A stretch of DNA of 5,545 nucleotides from a virus: IMG/VR virus record IMGVR_UViG_3300045988_112371, positions 1 through 5,545 of that record; one strand, 5' to 3'. Below, piece by piece: positions 1 through 5,545 of this stretch. A model generated the notes under the pieces. It worked only from the letters and a program-made list of their open reading frames with translations. It was not told the origin of the DNA and did not search any database. Made by a program: the position numbers and the translations under genes. Within the stretch, counting starts at the first letter, position 1. Every line of letters starts with the position of its first letter.

Positions 1-55
1 CATGACGAGCAGCGGAATTACTAAGAGCACCACCAATAATAGATGCGACGCCACC
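1..55. repeat. Terminal direct repeat, copy 1 (identical to 5491..5545); overlap of a circularly permuted or circular assembly
   Basis: Bases 1..55 (catgacgagcagcggaattactaagagcaccaccaataatagatgcgacgccacc) recur exactly at 5491..5545. The repeat lies inside one continuous minus-strand reading frame (VP2). An overlap of exactly 55 nt looks like a k-mer overlap from an assembler (inference). Confidence 0.95.
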
Positions 56-91
56 AGCAAGAGCTCCAGCAGCCGATCCAAGAAATGACAT
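1..91 (-). CDS. VP2: VP2 (minor capsid / DNA pilot protein), N-terminal segment; continues across the circular junction into 5490..4781
   Basis: ATG at 91..89 follows GGGGTGA (about 98..104) and lies 18 nt after the VP1 stop. It translates as MSFLGSAAGALAGGVASIIGGALSNSAARH..., and the frame is continuous with 5545 downward (position 1 = 5491; 5491 and 5431 are in phase). The Gly/Ala-rich hydrophobic N-terminus is typical of gokushovirus VP2. Confidence 0.75.
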   Translation of the reverse strand, partial: MSFLGSAAGALAGGVASIIGGALSNSAARH

Positions 92-109
92 TATAAATCA
101 CCCCTTTTT

Positions 110-1819
110 TTAGAAATGGCCCATCATTCCAGGAATACCATACATAGGCATAGGACGGATACATTTAAGATTAAATTTAACATCTAAGAGGAAATGAGGA
201 TAGGAAGGAACAGCGACAACACGGCTAATAGGCGGATGGTCTTGAATAAACTCATCCGACAATGTAGGCAGCGTAACAAATTTTTGAGAAAGATGCCAAA
301 TATCTAAAGGCTCCTTATAAGTCGAGCGAAATTGACCGGTAATCAAAGACGGCTTGTAGCGGTATTCAGCATAGCGCTCTTGGTAGCCAAATACTTTTTT
401 ATCATCTTCATTTCCTTGGCAATAAATTTCAATATTTTCTATAGCTTGTTCGCCAAGATGAGCAAAGGACGGCCAGTAAAAGTCCAGTACGTCGGAACGC
501 AGCCACATTTTATTTACTCCTTGCTGATAAGTCAAATCAGCACGAACGTTAATTAAGCCGATAACATAACCAAATTCAGAAAAAGATTTTGTAAAGGCAT
601 GATAACGCTGGGCATTAAGTCCATAAGCAGCTAAATTACCTTGAGGAGTAGTAGAATCAGTGGAACTTGTCTGTGTAACCGGATTGATGTTCATCATACT
701 ACTATGACTACCAAGAAACTCCGGACGTTGCAGCCGAGCATCAGGATTAGTCACACCGAAATGAGCTTGTAATTTTTCTGTGTAACGAGTACCGCCGCGG
801 GCGTCAATCTCATAATAACGCTGGAGCATAAACGCTTGACGAAGAGAATTAATAGTTATTGAAGTTGCTGAAGAAAGGTCGACAGTAGAACCAGCAGTTA
901 AAACGCCTTGGGTAGCAGAAACAGTAGCAGAACCACGGAATCCGCCGACATAAGCACGGTCATAAGCGTTACGATCAAGAGTCATAGAATTAACAGCAGT
1001 AACATTATCAGCAACAGTAGAGCTAGAAGCATCACCATAATAAAGGGACGTAGAACCCAAATTATTACCGGTAGAAGATAAGAAATACAAATCTTTAGTA
1101 GCAGGATTGGGAACAATAGAAGCAGTTTGACCTAAAGGCAAATCAACAGCCGGGCCTTTTTGTGGCCAAGGCAGCGCACCGGTGAAGTAATCATATCTTT
1201 TTCCACGTGGGGCCGGGTCATACCAATTTGTTACACCGGACGGCATACCATAATTAGGATTAGCGGTAGATTGTCCCATAGGTTCAAGCACTGTGTTAGT
1301 TTCGCCTTTGCTAACTTTAACAGATTTTTGTAAGTTCTCGTCACGGAACCACTCGTTCCATATAGTCCAGTAGCAGCGAAACGGCAAGCAATTAACAGAA
1401 ACATTATTAAATGTACCAGAAGCGCAAGCAATACCCATATAATCGGGAAGTTTATTTGTCATATCACCGGTAAGAGATACCGTAGGTACAAGATAATCAG
1501 TAGAATCTTCGGGGTTCTCCTGTTCTCCGCAAAGATTAACCCATTTATCATATACGAGCCTACTTGGAACAAAGAAGAAGAAGGACTCAATATAGATATT
1601 ATCCATGAATGGAACTACAGGAGTAGCCAAACGGCAAAATTCAACCGGATTTAAGGTAAACGTATCGCCTGGAATAACTTCATCCACAAAGTAGGGAATC
1701 AGCTGGCCTTCGTTAAAAGTAGTTTTATAAACATGACTTCTATCAAAGACGGAACGGCGAATATTAGCTTGAGGAATCATCGCAAAATGCGATTGATTAA
1801 CACGAATATTACGAGCCAT
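110..1819 (-). CDS. VP1: Major capsid protein VP1 (Microviridae F-type jelly-roll capsid), 569 aa
   Basis: This is the longest ORF. ATG at 1819 has AAGGAG (1828..1833) 8 nt upstream. Hallmark Microviridae capsid blocks are present: N-terminal RSVFDRSH...TFNEGQLIPYFVDEVIPGDTF, DYFTGALPWPQKG, LQRYYEIDARGGTRYTEKLQAHFGV and FGYQERYAEYRYKPS. A Ser/Thr-rich insertion at aa ~231-322 corresponds to the gokushovirus threefold protrusion loop. Confidence 0.95.
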   Translation of the reverse strand: MARNIRVNQSHFAMIPQANIRRSVFDRSHVYKTTFNEGQLIPYFVDEVIPGDTFTLNPVEFCRLATPVVPFMDNIYIESFFFFVPSRLVYDKWVNLCGEQENPEDSTDYLVPTVSLTGDMTNKLPDYMGIACASGTFNNVSVNCLPFRCYWTIWNEWFRDENLQKSVKVSKGETNTVLEPMGQSTANPNYGMPSGVTNWYDPAPRGKRYDYFTGALPWPQKGPAVDLPLGQTASIVPNPATKDLYFLSSTGNNLGSTSLYYGDASSSTVADNVTAVNSMTLDRNAYDRAYVGGFRGSATVSATQGVLTAGSTVDLSSATSITINSLRQAFMLQRYYEIDARGGTRYTEKLQAHFGVTNPDARLQRPEFLGSHSSMMNINPVTQTSSTDSTTPQGNLAAYGLNAQRYHAFTKSFSEFGYVIGLINVRADLTYQQGVNKMWLRSDVLDFYWPSFAHLGEQAIENIEIYCQGNEDDKKVFGYQERYAEYRYKPSLITGQFRSTYKEPLDIWHLSQKFVTLPTLSDEFIQDHPPISRVVAVPSYPHFLLDVKFNLKCIRPMPMYGIPGMMGHF

Positions 1820-1940
1820 AGTATAAACTCCTTAATTTTAATAAAAAGCCGAAAAGCACGAGAACGGCATTTTCGTTATCAAATACGAAGGTAATTAAAA
1901 ATAAATAAAAGGCTTATTTTTGAAGATTTTTCGTATTTTG

Positions 1941-1988
1941 TGTCACCTTGACCAGTTACTATCAAGTAGGTAACTGGTCAAGGTGACA
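1941..1988 (-). repeat. Perfect 19-bp inverted repeat with a 10-nt loop (stem-loop) in the VP3-VP1 intergenic region; candidate plus-strand replication origin
   Basis: 1941..1959 (tgtcaccttgaccagttac) is the exact reverse complement of 1970..1988. The loop at 1960..1969 reads CTACTTGATA on the minus (viral) strand. No U-run follows on the coding strand, so it is not a canonical intrinsic terminator. Confidence 0.6.
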
Positions 1989-2026
1989 AGGTTATTATTC
2001 TACATAAGTGAATATTAGCATGTAGT

Positions 2027-2470
2027 TTATTTTTGCTCTGAATTAGACTCTCCTGCTGCCGAAGTGGTAGATTCTTCCGAACTGTCTTCACTAGCTTTAG
2101 GTTTAAGGCCTAACTCCTCTAGTCTGGAAGTAACCTTAGGATCAGTAGAAGTTAGAGCATCAAGCAGCTGCCTTGGATCATTACCAAATTCAGCACGAAC
2201 GCTGGAAGGCAAATCTGCAAATTCTGCATTAACATTTGCAACAAGGTTGCAAGCAGTTTCATAATCCGGAAGTAGCGTTGTATCTCCATACTGTAAAGTA
2301 GCCGGGTCATGCGCTCCGACAGAATCAACAATGCCGGTAGTATTAAAATTAGCGATAATATGATGAATATCGCATTCTTCGGCGAATGTTTGGTCAGCAA
2401 GCGAAGGCTGTGTAATTTCTACGTGCGGTTTTGGCGGTTGCTCATCGTATAACGTAAAAAACTTAGCCAT
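2027..2470 (-). CDS. VP3: Internal scaffolding protein VP3, 147 aa
   Basis: ATG at 2470 has AAAGGAG (2481..2487) 10 nt upstream. It matches recalled gokushovirus VP3 motifs: QTFAEECDIHHII..F..TG, LQYGD....PDYETA.N.V, F..LPSSVRAEFGNDPRQLLD and an acidic/Ser-rich C-terminus. Confidence 0.9.
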   Translation of the reverse strand: MAKFFTLYDEQPPKPHVEITQPSLADQTFAEECDIHHIIANFNTTGIVDSVGAHDPATLQYGDTTLLPDYETACNLVANVNAEFADLPSSVRAEFGNDPRQLLDALTSTDPKVTSRLEELGLKPKASEDSSEESTTSAAGESNSEQK

Positions 2471-2540
2471 GCGTAAAAATCTCCTTTCTTAACCTAACAA
2501 GGCGCGCAGGTTAGTTTTGCGTAAGGCTCAATTCTCGTCC

Positions 2541-2570
2541 GCGATTGTTACGAAGCAATGAGCGATTGTT
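2541..2570. repeat. Two copies of a 9-bp direct repeat, gcgattgtt (2541..2549 and 2562..2570), spaced 21 bp apart
   Basis: Exact repeat seen in the long VP5-VP3 intergenic region. The spacing equals two helical turns. Chance occurrence within ~180 nt cannot be ruled out. Confidence 0.4.
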
Positions 2571-2596
2571 CCAGCTGGCGAACAGCAAATCCAATC

Positions 2597-2615
2597 ATTC
2601 CGGCATAGCCGGAAT
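2597..2615. repeat. GC-rich palindromic hairpin (8-bp stem, 3-nt loop): attccggc-ata-gccggaat
   Basis: Exact inverted repeat 2597..2604 / 2608..2615, immediately downstream (on the coding strand) of the T-run of the putative terminator. Confidence 0.6.
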
Positions 2616-2617
2616 AT

Positions 2618-2654
2618 AAAAACAAAAAAGACGCCTAACATTACGCTAGACGCC
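2618..2654 (-). terminator. Putative rho-independent terminator after the VP5-like gene
   Basis: On the minus strand, GGCGUCUA (2654..2647) pairs with UAGGCGUC (2637..2630). The stem is 8 bp with two G.U wobbles and the loop is 9 nt. TTTTTTGTTTTT (2629..2618) follows directly. The structure starts right after the TAA stop at 2655..2657. Confidence 0.5.
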
Positions 2655-3014
2655 TTAATTGCGTTGTGATATTACAACTTGCCTTGTCAGTATTATATCA
2701 CAACATTTGAAAGCGGGCAAGCGTACCTTATAACTACATTTTAGCAGTCTGGGGGGGGGAGTCAATAGCTCCGTGGCAGTAGACAAAAGCAAAGTGGGAT
2801 TTTGTGGGGAAAATTCACAAGTCTTATCGTCGAACACGCCAAGATACATCAGAACGAAGTCCTCGTGGTAATCATGGATAATATTGGAACGCTCCGGCGT
2901 CGAAGGCTGATTAACCATAATTTGGAATTGACGAATAGCCATAGCATTATTTTGTTGGGTAAAGGGCGGGTTCATTAACTCGCCCTTGCGGTCATAAATA
3001 CAATAAAGCTTCAT
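2655..3014 (-). CDS. VP5-like small non-structural protein (119 aa as written; the 3' end is doubtful, see the C9 tract)
   Basis: ATG at 3014 overlaps the upstream stop as ATGA, with GAGGTG (3020..3025) 5 nt upstream. The N-terminal 85 aa (MKLYCIYDRKGELMNPPF...AMAIRQF..MVN.......II....EDFVLMYLGVFDDKT.EF) fit the pattern I recall for gokushovirus VP5/ORF5 proteins, and the position between VP4 and VP3 also fits. The last ~31 codons are Cys/Lys-rich, look non-coding, and overlap an inverted repeat and a promoter-like motif. Confidence 0.7.
   Translation of the reverse strand: MKLYCIYDRKGELMNPPFTQQNNAMAIRQFQIMVNQPSTPERSNIIHDYHEDFVLMYLGVFDDKTCEFSPQNPTLLLSTATELLTPPPRLLKCSYKVRLPAFKCCDIILTRQVVISQRN
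2663..2704. repeat. 10-bp perfect inverted repeat (gttgtgatat ... atatcacaac) with a 22-nt spacer
   Basis: 2663..2672 is the exact reverse complement of 2695..2704. One arm overlaps the -10 element of the candidate promoter at 2692..2720. Confidence 0.7.
2692..2720 (-). promoter_or_regulatory. Candidate sigma70-type promoter with extended -10 (TTGCCC - 17 nt - TGaTATAAT)
   Basis: On the minus strand, TATAAT lies at 2697..2692 and is preceded by TGA (extended -10 TGn). After a 17-nt spacer the -35 is TTGCCC (2720..2715), matching TTGACA at 4 of 6 positions. It lies within the doubtful tail of the VP5-like ORF, upstream of VP3. Confidence 0.35.
2751..2759 (-). repeat. Homopolymer: G9 on the plus strand = C9 on the coding strand, inside the VP5-like CDS (codons PPP)
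   Basis: Counted directly: ggggggggg at 2751..2759. Confidence 0.95.
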
Positions 3015-3313
3015 TTTTTCACCTCAAAATTTTTTTTCTTGAGCAAAGCAAGGAATTCCTGTTTTGCCAAATGCGGAACAACAAAATACAATCCGTCGAA
3101 CAAAACAACCTTATTGTCAGAAACAAGGTCTACACGATTCTGAGCCTTGACGAAACATCCAACAACATGATTTTTACACCATTGACGAGCAGCGGAATAA
3201 GATGTAAACATTGGATAATCATCAAGATAAGAAAAAGCATCATCGTATAAATCACGAACAGACTGTTTTTCAAAACCTAAAGAAATAATTTGATCAGCAT
3301 AATCTTTTAACAT
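3011..3313 (-). CDS. Hypothetical protein, 100 aa (orphan accessory gene between VP4 and VP5-like)
   Basis: The ORF track begins at a TTG at 3370, but that would place a consensus promoter inside the gene. ATG at 3313 has GTGAGGT (about 3321..3327) 8 nt upstream and lies downstream of the predicted transcription start. The product begins MLKDYADQIISLGFEKQSVRDLYDD.... I recognise no family motif. The stop overlaps the next start (ATGA at 3011..3014), implying translational coupling. Confidence 0.7.
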   Translation of the reverse strand: MLKDYADQIISLGFEKQSVRDLYDDAFSYLDDYPMFTSYSAARQWCKNHVVGCFVKAQNRVDLVSDNKVVLFDGLYFVVPHLAKQEFLALLKKKNFEVKK

Positions 3314-3338
3314 ATTGCTTACCTCACTTTCTGTATAT

Positions 3339-3367
3339 ATTATACCATGAGGAAATGCAACTGTCAA
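3339..3367 (-). promoter_or_regulatory. Full-consensus sigma70 promoter: TTGACA - 17 nt - TGgTATAAT (extended -10)
   Basis: The minus strand reads TTGACA (3367..3362), the spacer gttgcatttcctcatgg (17 nt), then TATAAT (3344..3339). The spacer ends in TGG, giving TGnTATAAT. The predicted start is near A at ~3332, about 19 nt before ATG 3313. Confidence 0.8.
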
Positions 3368-3370
3368 CAA

Positions 3371-3400
3371 CTTTTTGCAACTTTTTACAACTTTTACAAA
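3371..3400 (-). repeat. Three tandem 10-bp A-tract repeats (TTTGTAAAAG / TTGTAAAAAG / TTGCAAAAAG) abutting the -35 element
   Basis: The minus strand at 3400..3371 reads TTTGTAAAAGTTGTAAAAAGTTGCAAAAAG and is followed by TTGTTGACA. The exact 10-bp phasing of A4-A5 tracts is typical of intrinsically bent DNA or UP-element-like upstream activating sequence. The VP4 stop codon (3394..3396) lies inside the first unit. Confidence 0.8.
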
Positions 3401-4338
3401 CCTAAATTATCAAAATCACGCTCAAATTGTTCCTGCCGATGCTTCATAATCTTCTCCTTGGCTTCCAGCCTTTTGATATCAATGATAGCAGCTTTAGCAT
3501 TATCAGCCTTATTTTGCTTGTATATACTATACCAAACGGGATTACTGCGTTCAAAAAGTGTTTGATAGTAACGAGGTATTTTATACTTAGCTCCATTAAT
3601 TGTAACAAAGCCTAATTTAAAAATATCCTCAGAATAAAGGCCGAAATAGTCAGCTCCGATACCTGGCTTTAGAGAGCTGCCGACAAACTCAGGACTAATA
3701 CCGAGAGCATCATACATAACAGCATTTTTGCCAGTCTGCTTTTTGAGACTATATTTGGCAACATAACGAGCTGACTCAAATGTTATAGCTCCGACAGTAT
3801 TATAACCATATGGCCAAAGTTTCTCCAGCGTGGGAGAGCGAAAGAGGTTATAGCCAGCTGTCAACGCCGAGATTTTGCGGACATCAGCAGGAAACCAACC
3901 AAAGCACAAAATATGATAATGTGGACGGCGATTAAGATCGCCATACTCACCGCAACATAAAAAGCGGATTTTAGAATTATCATGATAGTCTAAATAACGG
4001 CGAAGCCGTTTAAAAAATAACTGCAAGTGCTCACGATGAAGCGAATGGTCCGCTGGTAAACAATCATCATCATAAGTAAGCGTTATAAAACAGTTATGCA
4101 AATGCAGTTTAGCCTCATGCACGCAGCGTATAGCCCAATCATTAGCCTTGTCCAGACGACAGCCTAAACACTGACCGCAGGGAACAACAACAGCATAATT
4201 ATTAGCTAGCTCACTTTTAGCGATTTCTAAAGATTTACCAGCAAGATCACGATAAGATACAAAATTAGACAACTCATACTTGCCATTAGAATTAGGCACA
4301 GCAGAGCGTTTTGCAAACATAGGATTTAGGCAAGTCAT
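3394..4338 (-). CDS. VP4: Replication initiation protein VP4 (HUH rolling-circle endonuclease), 314 aa from ATG 4338 (an alternative GTG at 4347 would add 3 aa)
   Basis: RCR motifs are present: CFITLTY (motif 1), PHYHILCFG with H-Y-H encoded at 3913..3921 (HUH, motif 2) and ARYVAKYSLKK with Tyr codons at 3763..3765 and 3751..3753 (motif 3, catalytic Tyr pair). The PCGQCLGCRLDKANDWAIR block typical of microvirus VP4 is also present. The N-terminus MTCLNP resembles the usual VP4 start. There is no strong SD, and the start lies 15 nt after the stop of the upstream small gene, so coupling is possible. Confidence 0.93.
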   Translation of the reverse strand: MTCLNPMFAKRSAVPNSNGKYELSNFVSYRDLAGKSLEIAKSELANNYAVVVPCGQCLGCRLDKANDWAIRCVHEAKLHLHNCFITLTYDDDCLPADHSLHREHLQLFFKRLRRYLDYHDNSKIRFLCCGEYGDLNRRPHYHILCFGWFPADVRKISALTAGYNLFRSPTLEKLWPYGYNTVGAITFESARYVAKYSLKKQTGKNAVMYDALGISPEFVGSSLKPGIGADYFGLYSEDIFKLGFVTINGAKYKIPRYYQTLFERSNPVWYSIYKQNKADNAKAAIIDIKRLEAKEKIMKHRQEQFERDFDNLGL

Positions 4339-4353
4339 AATACACACATCTTT

Positions 4354-4467
4354 CTACATGCGGATACCGCCACGCATGTTTCTTGATTTAAGATTTTTGA
4401 GCCGTGGAACGGAGTGATTGCGAAAGTTACGGCGAGAAGCTCCACGGGAAATTCTACTTCTTTTCAT
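4354..4467 (-). CDS. VP8: Small arginine-rich DNA-binding/packaging protein (37 aa; VP8/ORF8-like, functional analogue of phiX174 J); absent from the supplied ORF track
   Basis: Hand translation from ATG 4467 gives MKRSRISRGASRRNFRNHSVPRLKNLKSRNMRGGIRM, ending at TAG (4354..4356). It has 10 Arg and 3 Lys, with no acidic residues. AAGGAG (4476..4481) lies 8 nt upstream. The C-terminal MRGGIR motif matches what I recall for gokushovirus ORF8 proteins. Confidence 0.8.
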   Translation of the reverse strand: MKRSRISRGASRRNFRNHSVPRLKNLKSRNMRGGIRM

Positions 4468-4505
4468 TTTTTTTGCTCCTTAAATAAAGACCAAAACAAA
4501 GGATA

Positions 4506-4775
4506 TTAAGAATTTTTTCCCAGAAAGCGGGAGTAGCTTTTCTCTTCCGCCTGCGCTGCAGCTGCATGGCGAAAGCCATTTACGTCATCTGTGCCTCTTT
4601 TCTGCATATTAACAAGATCGTCCTGCATAGCCAAAGAGAGAGCTTTAAGGCTTGCGCTGCCTTCACGATCATATTTACCGGTACGAAACATGTCGATAAA
4701 ATCAACAACCTCTTGGATGAACGGAATTACAGTAGATACAAGAAAAGTCAAAATAGCAGTAGTTTTGTTAGACAT
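4506..4775 (-). CDS. Hypothetical membrane-anchored protein, 89 aa (one N-terminal transmembrane segment)
   Basis: The track ORF starts at TTG 4784, but ATG at 4775 has GGAGG (4785..4789) 9 nt upstream, and that GGAGG overlaps the VP2 stop (GGAGGTTGA). The product is MSNKTTAILTFLVSTVIPFIQEVV..., a hydrophobic stretch of ~18 residues followed by a charged soluble tail. I recognise no family. Confidence 0.7.
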   Translation of the reverse strand: MSNKTTAILTFLVSTVIPFIQEVVDFIDMFRTGKYDREGSASLKALSLAMQDDLVNMQKRGTDDVNGFRHAAAAQAEEKSYSRFLGKNS

Positions 4776-4780
4776 ATAAA

Positions 4781-5545
4781 TCAACCTCCAAAATAAATTT
4801 TTTTAGCCTTGTCAAGGAGCTTACCGAAAGCACCACCAATAGAACCAGCAATAGAAGAATCAGTATCAAAACCATATTTGCCACGCATCTCATTCTGCAT
4901 AGATGCACGGCTAGTAGCTTCTTTAGACTGTGCAGTAAGCTGACCACTATATGCTGCAGAACTATTAGCAGCATTACCTTGGGCAATCATCATATTAGCT
5001 TGTGCCGGCATAATAACATCACGCTGATAAATAGCATTTTTTGTTTGCTCATCAATAAGAGCACCCTGTTTTTCAGCATTTTTCAAATTCTGTTTATATA
5101 AAGCAACATTATCAGCATATGTATCAGTAGCTAGCTTATTAGCGAGAGTTTTTCCAGCAGCTTCAGCTTCATAATTCTTTGCAGAAGCAGCATTTAAAAC
5201 AACATCAGAATCGAGCTTTTTTATAGTACCTTCTCCAACACGCTGAGCAGTATCTGCCTGCTTTTGAGCAGCCTTAGCAGAACTACCAGCAGCTTGAGCA
5301 GACATCCCGGCAGTAACGCCTTCGCCAATATTATAATTAGCGGAAAGAGCAGAAGCTCCATTAACAGAGCCGCCAATACCTTGCGTAGCAGCAAGAATAG
5401 GGTTCAATCCAGCTTTTTGCATATCTTCCATTGACCATTGATAGCGATGCTGGTAATTATAAATATTACGCTGATTAGCTACTGTTGCAGCATGACGAGC
5501 AGCGGAATTACTAAGAGCACCACCAATAATAGATGCGACGCCACC
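4781..5545 (-). CDS. VP2: VP2 (minor capsid / DNA pilot protein), main segment; the frame is open to the window edge and the true start is ATG 91..89 across the junction (full length 266 aa)
   Basis: The frame is open from 5545 down to TGA at 4781..4783. Upstream of the track Met (5431) it reads ...GGVASIIGGALSNSAARHAATVANQRNIYNYQHRYQWS-MEDMQKAGLNPILAA.... The (K/R)AGLNPIL motif and the Ala/Gln/Gly-rich body are characteristic of gokushovirus VP2. Total length is 91 + 710 nt = 801 nt, or 267 codons including the stop. Confidence 0.88.
   Translation of the reverse strand, partial: GGVASIIGGALSNSAARHAATVANQRNIYNYQHRYQWSMEDMQKAGLNPILAATQGIGGSVNGASALSANYNIGEGVTAGMSAQAAGSSAKAAQKQADTAQRVGEGTIKKLDSDVVLNAASAKNYEAEAAGKTLANKLATDTYADNVALYKQNLKNAEKQGALIDEQTKNAIYQRDVIMPAQANMMIAQGNAANSSAAYSGQLTAQSKEATSRASMQNEMRGKYGFDTDSSIAGSIGGAFGKLLDKAKKIYFGG
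5491..5545. repeat. Terminal direct repeat, copy 2 (identical to 1..55)
   Basis: Exact 55/55 identity with the window start. Confidence 0.95.

Follow-up and report, generated by a model that had tools for sequence, protein, structure and literature searches.

A hypervariable gene behind a consensus promoter between VP4 and VP5 of a gokushovirus, a probable accessory cassette

The 5,545-nucleotide (nt) stretch of viral DNA analysed here (IMG/VR virus record IMGVR_UViG_3300045988_112371, positions 1 to 5,545; hereafter the window) is the complete circular genome of a gokushovirus, 5,490 nt long and recorded with a terminal overlap of 55 nt. All of its genes are carried by the minus strand, in the order VP4, a gene of 100 amino acids (aa) that we call the slot gene, VP5, VP3, VP1, VP2, a 92-aa gene and a small Arg-rich gene. 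We focused our attention on the slot gene (3313..3011), which lies between VP4 (Rep; 4347..3394) and VP5 (3014..2655), and on the 80 nt that separate it from VP4. This gene was found to be a hypervariable, recombining cassette in a nearly invariant backbone.

Read on the coding strand from the VP4 stop codon to the ATG at 3313, the 80 nt are TAAAAG TTGTAAAAAG TTGCAAAAAG TTG TTGACA GTTGCATTTCCTCATGG TATAAT ATATACAGAAAGTGAGGTAAGCAAT ATG. They contain an extended -10 promoter, TTGACA-17-TGgTATAAT (3367..3339, minus strand), in which the -35 hexamer TTGACA occupies 3367-3362 and the extended -10 element TGgTATAAT occupies 3339..3347 (TG at 3347-3346, the g, and TATAAT at 3344-3339). An earlier note on this DNA, made from the sequence alone, had described this promoter as fully consensus, and we confirmed that the match is exact. 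A promoter scan gave it as the single 12/12 match out of 20 promoter-like sites in the window, and the full extended pattern, with at most one mismatch allowed, was found at a single place in the window and did not occur in 200 dinucleotide shuffles. Transcription is predicted to start at 3332, 7 nt past the -10 hexamer, a position taken from promoter geometry alone, and the 5' end of the predicted mRNA shows no more structure than shuffled sequences (z +0.83). The analysis gave no support to the immediate transcription that the earlier note had thought probable. The consensus -35 and -10 elements, together with the long Shine-Dalgarno site, suggest a host with the canonical sigma-70/sigma-A promoter type, not Bacteroidota.

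The Shine-Dalgarno region AGAAAGTGAGGT (3321..3332, minus strand) is placed 7 nt upstream of ATG 3313, and the 100-aa open reading frame (ORF) that follows ends in an ATGA overlap (3011..3014, minus strand), where the TGA stop of the slot gene shares the ATG of VP5. The sequence agrees with the earlier description of all three features, including the translational coupling to VP5. Among relatives, the junction between the slot gene and VP5 measures -4, -1 or +4/+5 nt, the exception being -23 nt in genome L038. The final slot codons, GAG GTG AAA AAA, double as the Shine-Dalgarno site of VP5, and the codons for E-V-K-K are conserved because the GAGGTG within them is the VP5 ribosome-binding site. 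No terminator-like hairpin was found between the slot gene and VP5; the first one past the promoter, a hairpin with a T-run at 2628..2656 on the minus strand (identity 0.84-0.93), comes after VP5. Since the ORF overlaps VP5 and the hairpin lies only behind it, the promoter would serve VP5 as well. The promoter had been presented as the gene's own, which is right in that it stands directly upstream of the gene but not in that it would belong to this gene exclusively.

Upstream of the -35 hexamer lies a phased A-tract array, TTGTAAAAG / TTGTAAAAAG / TTGCAAAAAG (3371..3399, minus strand), whose units stand in 10-nt phase. Tandem Repeats Finder assigned it a period of 10 and 3.4 copies; of 200 shuffled sequences, 3 contained three A4 tracts spaced 10 nt apart. 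Three 10-bp repeats right after the VP4 stop had been proposed; the phased array is there, but its first unit is 9 nt long and contains the stop codon itself (TAA, 3396-3394). The GTTG periodicity extends through the -35 hexamer, which sits within a fourth decamer, GTTGTTGACA, and into the spacer (GTTGCATTTC), whose first five letters, GTTGC (3357..3361, minus strand), are conserved while the remaining spacer varies. The AAAGTTGY motif is confined to the array within this genome. Among relatives the array has two to four copies, and its 10-nt register with the -35 hexamer is always maintained. The array was also considered as a replication origin and rejected: the viral strand folds there no better than shuffles (z -1.1), which makes a single-strand origin unlikely.

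UP-like or bent-DNA activation by phased A-tracts is familiar from Escherichia coli and Bacillus promoters, and promoters with phased A-tracts or UP elements are reportedly the subject of Estrem 1999, Aiyar 1998 and Helmann 1995. As in E. coli rrnB P1 and in Bacillus subtilis sigma-A promoters with TG at -16, A-tracts are found here upstream of consensus -35 and -10 elements with TG. The tracts (A5, A5 and A4, at -44..-40, -54..-50 and -63..-60 of the predicted start) are centred near -42, -52 and -62, so that A/T-rich tracts occur within about -38 to -60 and are helically phased to the core promoter. Compared with UP-element promoters, the likeness, which is one of sequence alone, is incomplete: the proximal subsite consensus AAAAAARNR is matched in part, by GCAAAAAGT at -46..-38, and the invariant GTTG beside the A-tracts is foreign to the UP consensus. 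The A-tracts probably act like an UP element or as bent DNA. Bending alone accounts neither for the GTTG beside every A-tract nor for the conserved GTTGC of the spacer, and a conserved sequence-specific factor may bind these sites in an iteron-like manner.

To place the locus among its relatives, which were drawn mostly from one large IMG/VR data set, we compared the promoter region of 23 genomes, the window included. TTGACA is kept in 20/23, TATAAT in 22/23, TG in 21/23 and the GTTGC at the start of the spacer in 20/23, and the Shine-Dalgarno site is present in all 23, with one T-to-C change in L043. Substitutions cluster in the spacer and at -6..+1, the stretch that leads from the -10 hexamer to the predicted start. 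Nothing else in the region is as conserved as the promoter block and the final 50 nt of VP4 (0.88-0.98 identity to relatives). At the same time, the neighbouring genes have diverged by 0.65-1.0 synonymous substitutions per site, and such conservation of the block against diverged synonymous sites marks a functional promoter that has an upstream element. The 3' end of VP4 (3394..3443, minus strand) is 0.94-0.98 identical to eight relatives, compared with 0.75-0.9 across most of VP4. These last ~50 nt are nearly invariant among relatives even at synonymous sites, which suggests a cis element that overlaps the end of VP4 upstream of the promoter.

The same arrangement was recovered elsewhere. Eight genomes, retrieved via protein identity, have identical synteny and a gap of exactly 80 nt between VP4 and the slot gene, and scans of IMG/VR with the repeat-plus-(-35) pattern and for close VP5 relatives identified 15 genomes with the same promoter and leader. 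In those that keep the gene, the first five codons are near-constant (MLKDY in 13 of 14; MLKNY and MYKDY also occur), and in most of the 15 the body of the gene is entirely different. Over 231 genome pairs, the median identity was 28% for the slot protein (minimum 2%), 96% for VP5 (minimum 91%) and 92% for the VP4 C-terminus; VP5 is 91-99% identical among 22 genomes. The hypervariable body, from codon 6 to about codon 95 (3029..3298, minus strand), has the lowest identity of the region (0.58-0.8). Thus, otherwise similar genomes differ to an extreme degree in this one segment, and its borders are sharp.

We distinguished five types of slot protein: type A, that of the window; type B (for example, L046); type C (for example, L034); and types D and E, found only in L038 and L041, respectively. 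Clustering the proteins at 40% identity merged types via their shared termini, and this grouping was set aside. Profile comparison, which covered types A, B and C, gave hhalign probabilities of 96.8% for A-B, 89.4% for A-C and 96.8% for B-C, and by this sequence evidence the three are homologous though very divergent, with ~20-30% identity. Types D and E were joined to them by alignment. In the joint alignment M-x-K-D-Y and F-x-[ST]-Y-x-x-x-R are retained, as is one Tyr of the hairpin. AlphaFold2 predicted types A and C with confidence (pLDDT, predicted local distance difference test, 84 and 89) and in a common order: helix, short strand, helix, beta-hairpin, helix. Slot proteins are 83-132 aa long, have no hydrophobic segment and cover isoelectric points of 5.8-9.4, which means that they are not acidic DNA mimics; they are soluble, and the models show an alpha/beta protein. 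An optional C-terminal module of ~35 residues, FKAFIDYTSNELARDGV.IPK.LF.EVKK, is found at the end of type A, type B and type C proteins (L010, L034, L039, L045) and constitutes a second level of mosaicism in the slot gene.

The distribution of the cassette types does not match the phylogeny of the flanks. In a tree built from the VP4 3' end, the intergenic stretch and VP5, the types cluster no more than they do once their labels are shuffled, and type A requires 8 changes over 9 rows. One type-B and one type-A genome are sisters with support of 99/96. This pair is 97-100% identical through codon 5, 20-50% identical inside the ORF, where the drop coincides exactly with the hypervariable body, and at least 90% identical from the VP5 ATG onwards.

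Pairwise estimates of dN/dS (the ratio of nonsynonymous to synonymous substitution rates), which are rough because dS is partly saturated, were 0.43 for the slot gene, 0.03 for VP5, 0.07 for VP4 and 0.09 for VP3. Within the slot gene they differ by segment, with 0.16 for codons 67-95, which encode the C-terminal hairpin and helix, ~0.8 for codons 6-30 and ~1.2 for codons 50-66.

A search of 5.8 billion proteins returned 29 protein clusters at 55-97% identity, all starting with MLKDY and located on contigs of about 5.2-5.6 kb or fragments. An exhaustive HMMER profile search added four further distant small proteins that begin with MLKDY; the long multi-stretch matches P0031, P0034, P0035, P0036 and P0038 were discarded as repetitive proteins and artefacts of summed scores. 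With a family of at least 40 metagenomic members, the gene is no longer the orphan that it had been taken for. The slot protein belongs to no Pfam or PHROG family, and no profile match links it to the core microvirus proteins (VP1-5, VP8; phiX174 A-K). PADLOC gave no match for three of four slot proteins and a weak one for P0032 (E 0.0096, 11.6 bits), a PDB profile search gave nothing significant (E 0.15), and Foldseek found nothing with E below 0.1 when the two confident models were compared with PDB and BFVD. The earlier impression that the 100-aa protein has no recognisable motif agrees with the lack of a significant match in Pfam, PHROG, PADLOC, PDB and BFVD. Likewise, tblastn with types A and B revealed nothing significant in 50,697 GenBank phage records, and there were no homologues of the family in 185,579 prokaryote species genomes. 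The slot protein is a member of a virus-only superfamily, found only in a clade of roughly 5.45-5.6-kb gokushoviruses.

The position between VP4 and VP5 is empty in most other gokushoviruses. VP5 begins -8 to +29 nt from VP4 in Chp2 (Chlamydia phage 2), bajarodmic virus 350, KT264826 and Bog8989_22, and enterogokushoviruses have been published with the arrangement VP4-VP5-VP3-VP1-VP2-VP8 in genomes of 4.3-4.7 kb (PMC7062461). Gut gokushoviruses have the order VP4-VP5-VP3-VP1-VP2, the same as in the window (PMC3394797). The slot gene thus stands as extra cargo, as had been supposed from its absence in the core gene set, and the proposed comparison of synteny shows a slot that is variable among relatives and empty in most others. 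Within the clade, the complete circular genome L037 (= L004; IMGVR_UViG_3300045988_121362; 5,276 nt) is without the promoter and without codons 1 to ~67. Its completeness is indicated by direct terminal repeats and a CheckV estimate of 100%. The deletion of ~280 nt maps at 1525-1680 (about window 3391..3113), and its junction is a short TAA-GTTGT microhomology. A second record with this junction, L007, is 100% identical to the first and is for that reason not independent. Basic replication probably does not require the cassette.

The nearest GenBank relatives, KT264820 and KT264821, show ~71% identity over the 30-38% of the genome that aligns. Both hold unannotated slot ORFs (KT264820.1, L001, 90 aa, 4155-4427; KT264821.1, L002, 74 aa, 4105-4329), each behind its own extended -10 promoter with two upstream repeats. 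Position and promoter style are as in the window, and KT264820 also has the ATGA overlap with VP5, but the encoded proteins have no detectable homology to the window's slot family. KX513874.1 (L019) likewise holds an unannotated VP4-VP5 ORF of the 74-90-aa class (911-1153). By eye, the slot ORFs of KT264820, KT264821 and KX513874 had resembled the family, and they were rejected as members at an hhalign probability of <1%. In capybara microvirus MK496740.1 (L021), the VP4-VP5 gap (1380-1488) apparently encodes an unannotated Arg/Lys-rich peptide that ends in MRGGIRL and resembles the J/VP8 DNA-binding peptide.

Taken at the level of sequence, these observations make it probable that the slot gene is a promoter-driven, exchangeable and dispensable accessory cassette. 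In the mechanism that we propose, a strong promoter for host RNA polymerase would act directly after the Rep gene, with the A-tracts as activating upstream elements, and would yield a two-gene message of the slot gene followed by VP5. The nearly invariant left flank (promoter, 5' untranslated region and five codons) and the right flank, formed by the VP5 start, enclose ~285 nt that exist in at least three homologous types and two single-genome variants and that are swapped between backbones by recombination. The slot protein, abundantly made, would neutralise a host defence or exclude other microviruses; its specificity would come from the helices and the loop that vary, set on a scaffold made up of the conserved beta-hairpin and helix core.

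That the protein takes part in an arms race, by counter-defence or by exclusion of competing microviruses, is of the functions considered the likeliest, and we advance it tentatively and by analogy. It is favoured because very strong expression signals, dispensability, a conserved scaffold with two surface segments that evolve near neutrality or faster, and allelic exchange between near-identical backbones resemble genes of counter-defence and competition in other phages, and because microviruses offer a reported precedent in hypervariable regions for superinfection exclusion.

Several points weigh against this interpretation. The searches of PADLOC, PDB and BFVD gave no link in sequence or fold to any anti-defence or exclusion protein, so that the functional assignment derives from evolutionary pattern and context only. 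The dN/dS values are of the rough, partly saturated kind described above, and both the start near 3332 and the strength of the promoter are read from sequence geometry. In addition, the deletion genome could be a defective hitch-hiker that is complemented by intact relatives, and the tight coupling to VP5, a core replication/packaging protein, would also fit a role in phage replication.

A bolder version of the arms-race interpretation is somewhat unlikely as a whole. It would make the locus the first dedicated conflict locus of gokushoviruses: an allelic series on one scaffold, placed under the strongest promoter and possibly restrained by VP5 through the decamers as operators, in which variable surfaces would target host defences or the replication machinery of rivals and alleles would be traded through the invariant flanks.

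A different explanation concerns the promoter and is compatible with an accessory cassette as the main explanation of the gene. Here, the promoter would exist primarily for VP5 and the downstream morphogenesis genes, the array and GTTGC would be an operator for a conserved factor (VP5, VP4 or a host protein), and the slot gene would ride along. The lack of a terminator between the slot gene and VP5 is in line with this, and so is the conservation of the AAAGTTG units and of the spacer GTTGC past what A-tract bending needs, with AAAGTTGY occurring only in the array. Moreover, KT264820 and KT264821 hold two GTTGCA- or AGTTACC-like units in the same place, at or near the -35 hexamer, and the constancy of the repeats across cassette types means that any binder would be a conserved protein. 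However, in the genomes examined the promoter was seen only where the slot is occupied, VP4-VP5 gaps of 0-29 nt being without it, the copy number of the repeats varies from two to four, and no DNA-binding fold was detected for VP5. On balance, we regard this explanation as unlikely.

We consider it quite improbable that the slot protein is instead an accessory factor of phage DNA replication or packaging, made in a fixed ratio with VP5, which would adapt VP4 or VP5 to a host replication protein and whose variability would track host strains. In 21 of the 22 genomes measured, the slot stop either overlaps the VP5 start or lies next to it, and the conservation of the N-terminus, F-x-S/T-Y-x-x-x-R and the beta-hairpin across types suggests a shared partner. 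VP5 itself is described as the protein that switches from double-stranded to single-stranded DNA synthesis, a reported analogue of the phiX174 switch (PMC7062461). However, most gokushoviruses replicate with no gene at all in the slot, and one complete genome is without most of it. VP4 and VP5 are 84-99% identical across cassette types, and therefore no co-variation with a phage partner is visible, and host replication proteins are usually too conserved to account for 70-80% divergence.

Even less support was obtained for a transcription regulator that would bind the decamers and autoregulate its own promoter, which is very improbable. The repeats are directly upstream of the gene and the weak, non-significant Foldseek matches are mostly winged-helix proteins (MarR, Sso10a, F-93; E 1.5-4), but all TM-scores (template modelling) are at most 0.38 and in the predicted topology a single helix, and no helix-turn-helix, separates the first strand from the hairpin. 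The repeats are also nearly identical ahead of cassette types A to E, although these types share only ~20-30% identity; a sequence-specific binder should co-vary with its sites, and this speaks against the slot protein in that role.

Finally, it is scarcely credible that translation starts at TTG 3370 and that the 'promoter' is coding sequence: the upstream frame is open to this TTG in 21/23 genomes, as expected anyway of a block that barely varies, but no Shine-Dalgarno site precedes it, the conserved positions track the -35 and -10 hexamers and not codon positions (spacer codons vary the amino acid freely), the frame is broken in L013 by a 1-nt shift and in L043 by a 10-nt deletion, both of which leave the ATG-started gene intact, and a strong Shine-Dalgarno site before the ATG in 23/23 genomes and a beginning with MLKDY in 29/29 called homologues bear out the preference of the earlier note for ATG 3313.

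The probable accessory cassette shares features with several known systems. As in the promoter-gene-terminator morons of lambdoid tailed phages, an extra and probably dispensable gene with a strong promoter stands between core genes and varies in relatives; in contrast to morons, the slot gene has no terminator, is translationally linked to VP5, and consists of homologous alleles at a fixed site and not of unrelated insertions. With acr-aca anti-CRISPR operons the window shares small diverse proteins, a strong promoter, a conserved small downstream gene and repeats that overlap the promoter. This is an analogy only, as those operons have inverted repeats and a helix-turn-helix regulator, whereas the window has direct repeats and the Phage_ORF5 protein VP5. 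The hypervariable region described by Kirchberger, Martinez, Luker and Ochman in PNAS in 2021 is said to lie inside the DNA pilot protein VP2 of temperate lineages. It has the same short and extreme diversity in otherwise very similar genomes, which suggests conflict, but it is part of VP2, whereas that of the window is a separate cytoplasmic gene with a promoter between VP4 and VP5. Going by the title of that work as it is cited in PMC9239249 (Kirchberger et al, PNAS 2021), hypervariable microvirus regions confer superinfection exclusion.

Extra genes beyond VP1-5 and VP8 are possible in gokushoviruses, as accessory genes of gut members demonstrate (M15_3 peptidase; Roux et al, 2012, PMC3394797; PMC9239249), and an M15 peptidase is among the extra genes reported, including in the VP4-VP5 slot (PMC3394797). 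These genes have cellular homologues and a predicted role in lysis, whereas the slot family is without a known homologue and hypervariable. According to a 2022 survey in mBio (PMC9239249), the accessory repertoires of microviruses are limited and gene exchange across families is rare, a statement compatible with exchange inside one clade. The new elements in the present case are the uncatalogued virus-only superfamily, the hypervariability with sharp borders, and the conserved block of promoter and decamers by which the cassette is framed.

Microviruses are among the commonest gut phages and are considered to have hardly any space for accessory genes and to exchange genes seldom (PMC9239249). 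If our interpretation is true, a fixed, promoter-equipped slot with exchangeable alleles would show a 5.5-kb genome engaged in an arms race, and the at least three related types on near-identical backbones would be a natural set of variants for finding the target by cassette swaps. The near-consensus promoter with an A-tract array of variable copy number would also be a test case for distinguishing upstream activation from operator function.

Regarding the other genes of the window, known-family profile matches (Pfam, PHROG) were obtained for VP3, VP4 and VP5. VP3 (2470..2027, minus strand) lies downstream of VP5, and VP1 (1819..110, minus strand) downstream of VP3. The 92-aa gene after VP2 (4506-4784, minus strand) matches PHROG 23638, a family of unknown function (E 1.7e-14), and is present as an 89-aa gene in all relatives. 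In VP5, the Phage_ORF5 domain covers residues 3-81 (Pfam E 4.8e-20; PHROG 1670); this was its only match, and no helix-turn-helix was detected in it. A second extended -10 candidate, TTGCCC-17-TGaTATAAT, is found at 2692-2720 on the minus strand, ~40 nt upstream of the conserved terminator-like hairpin, and this unusual pairing may represent an attenuator, a 5' stabiliser or a small RNA. In close relatives, VP5 occurs in a short form of 93 aa and a long form of 113-122 aa (L026, L028, L030, L031, L009; window 2655-2760, minus strand). The form tracks the length of a poly-C run, which is C9 in the window, and the tail of the long form extends into the VP5-VP3 spacer, reading through its conserved hairpin and promoter-like DNA.

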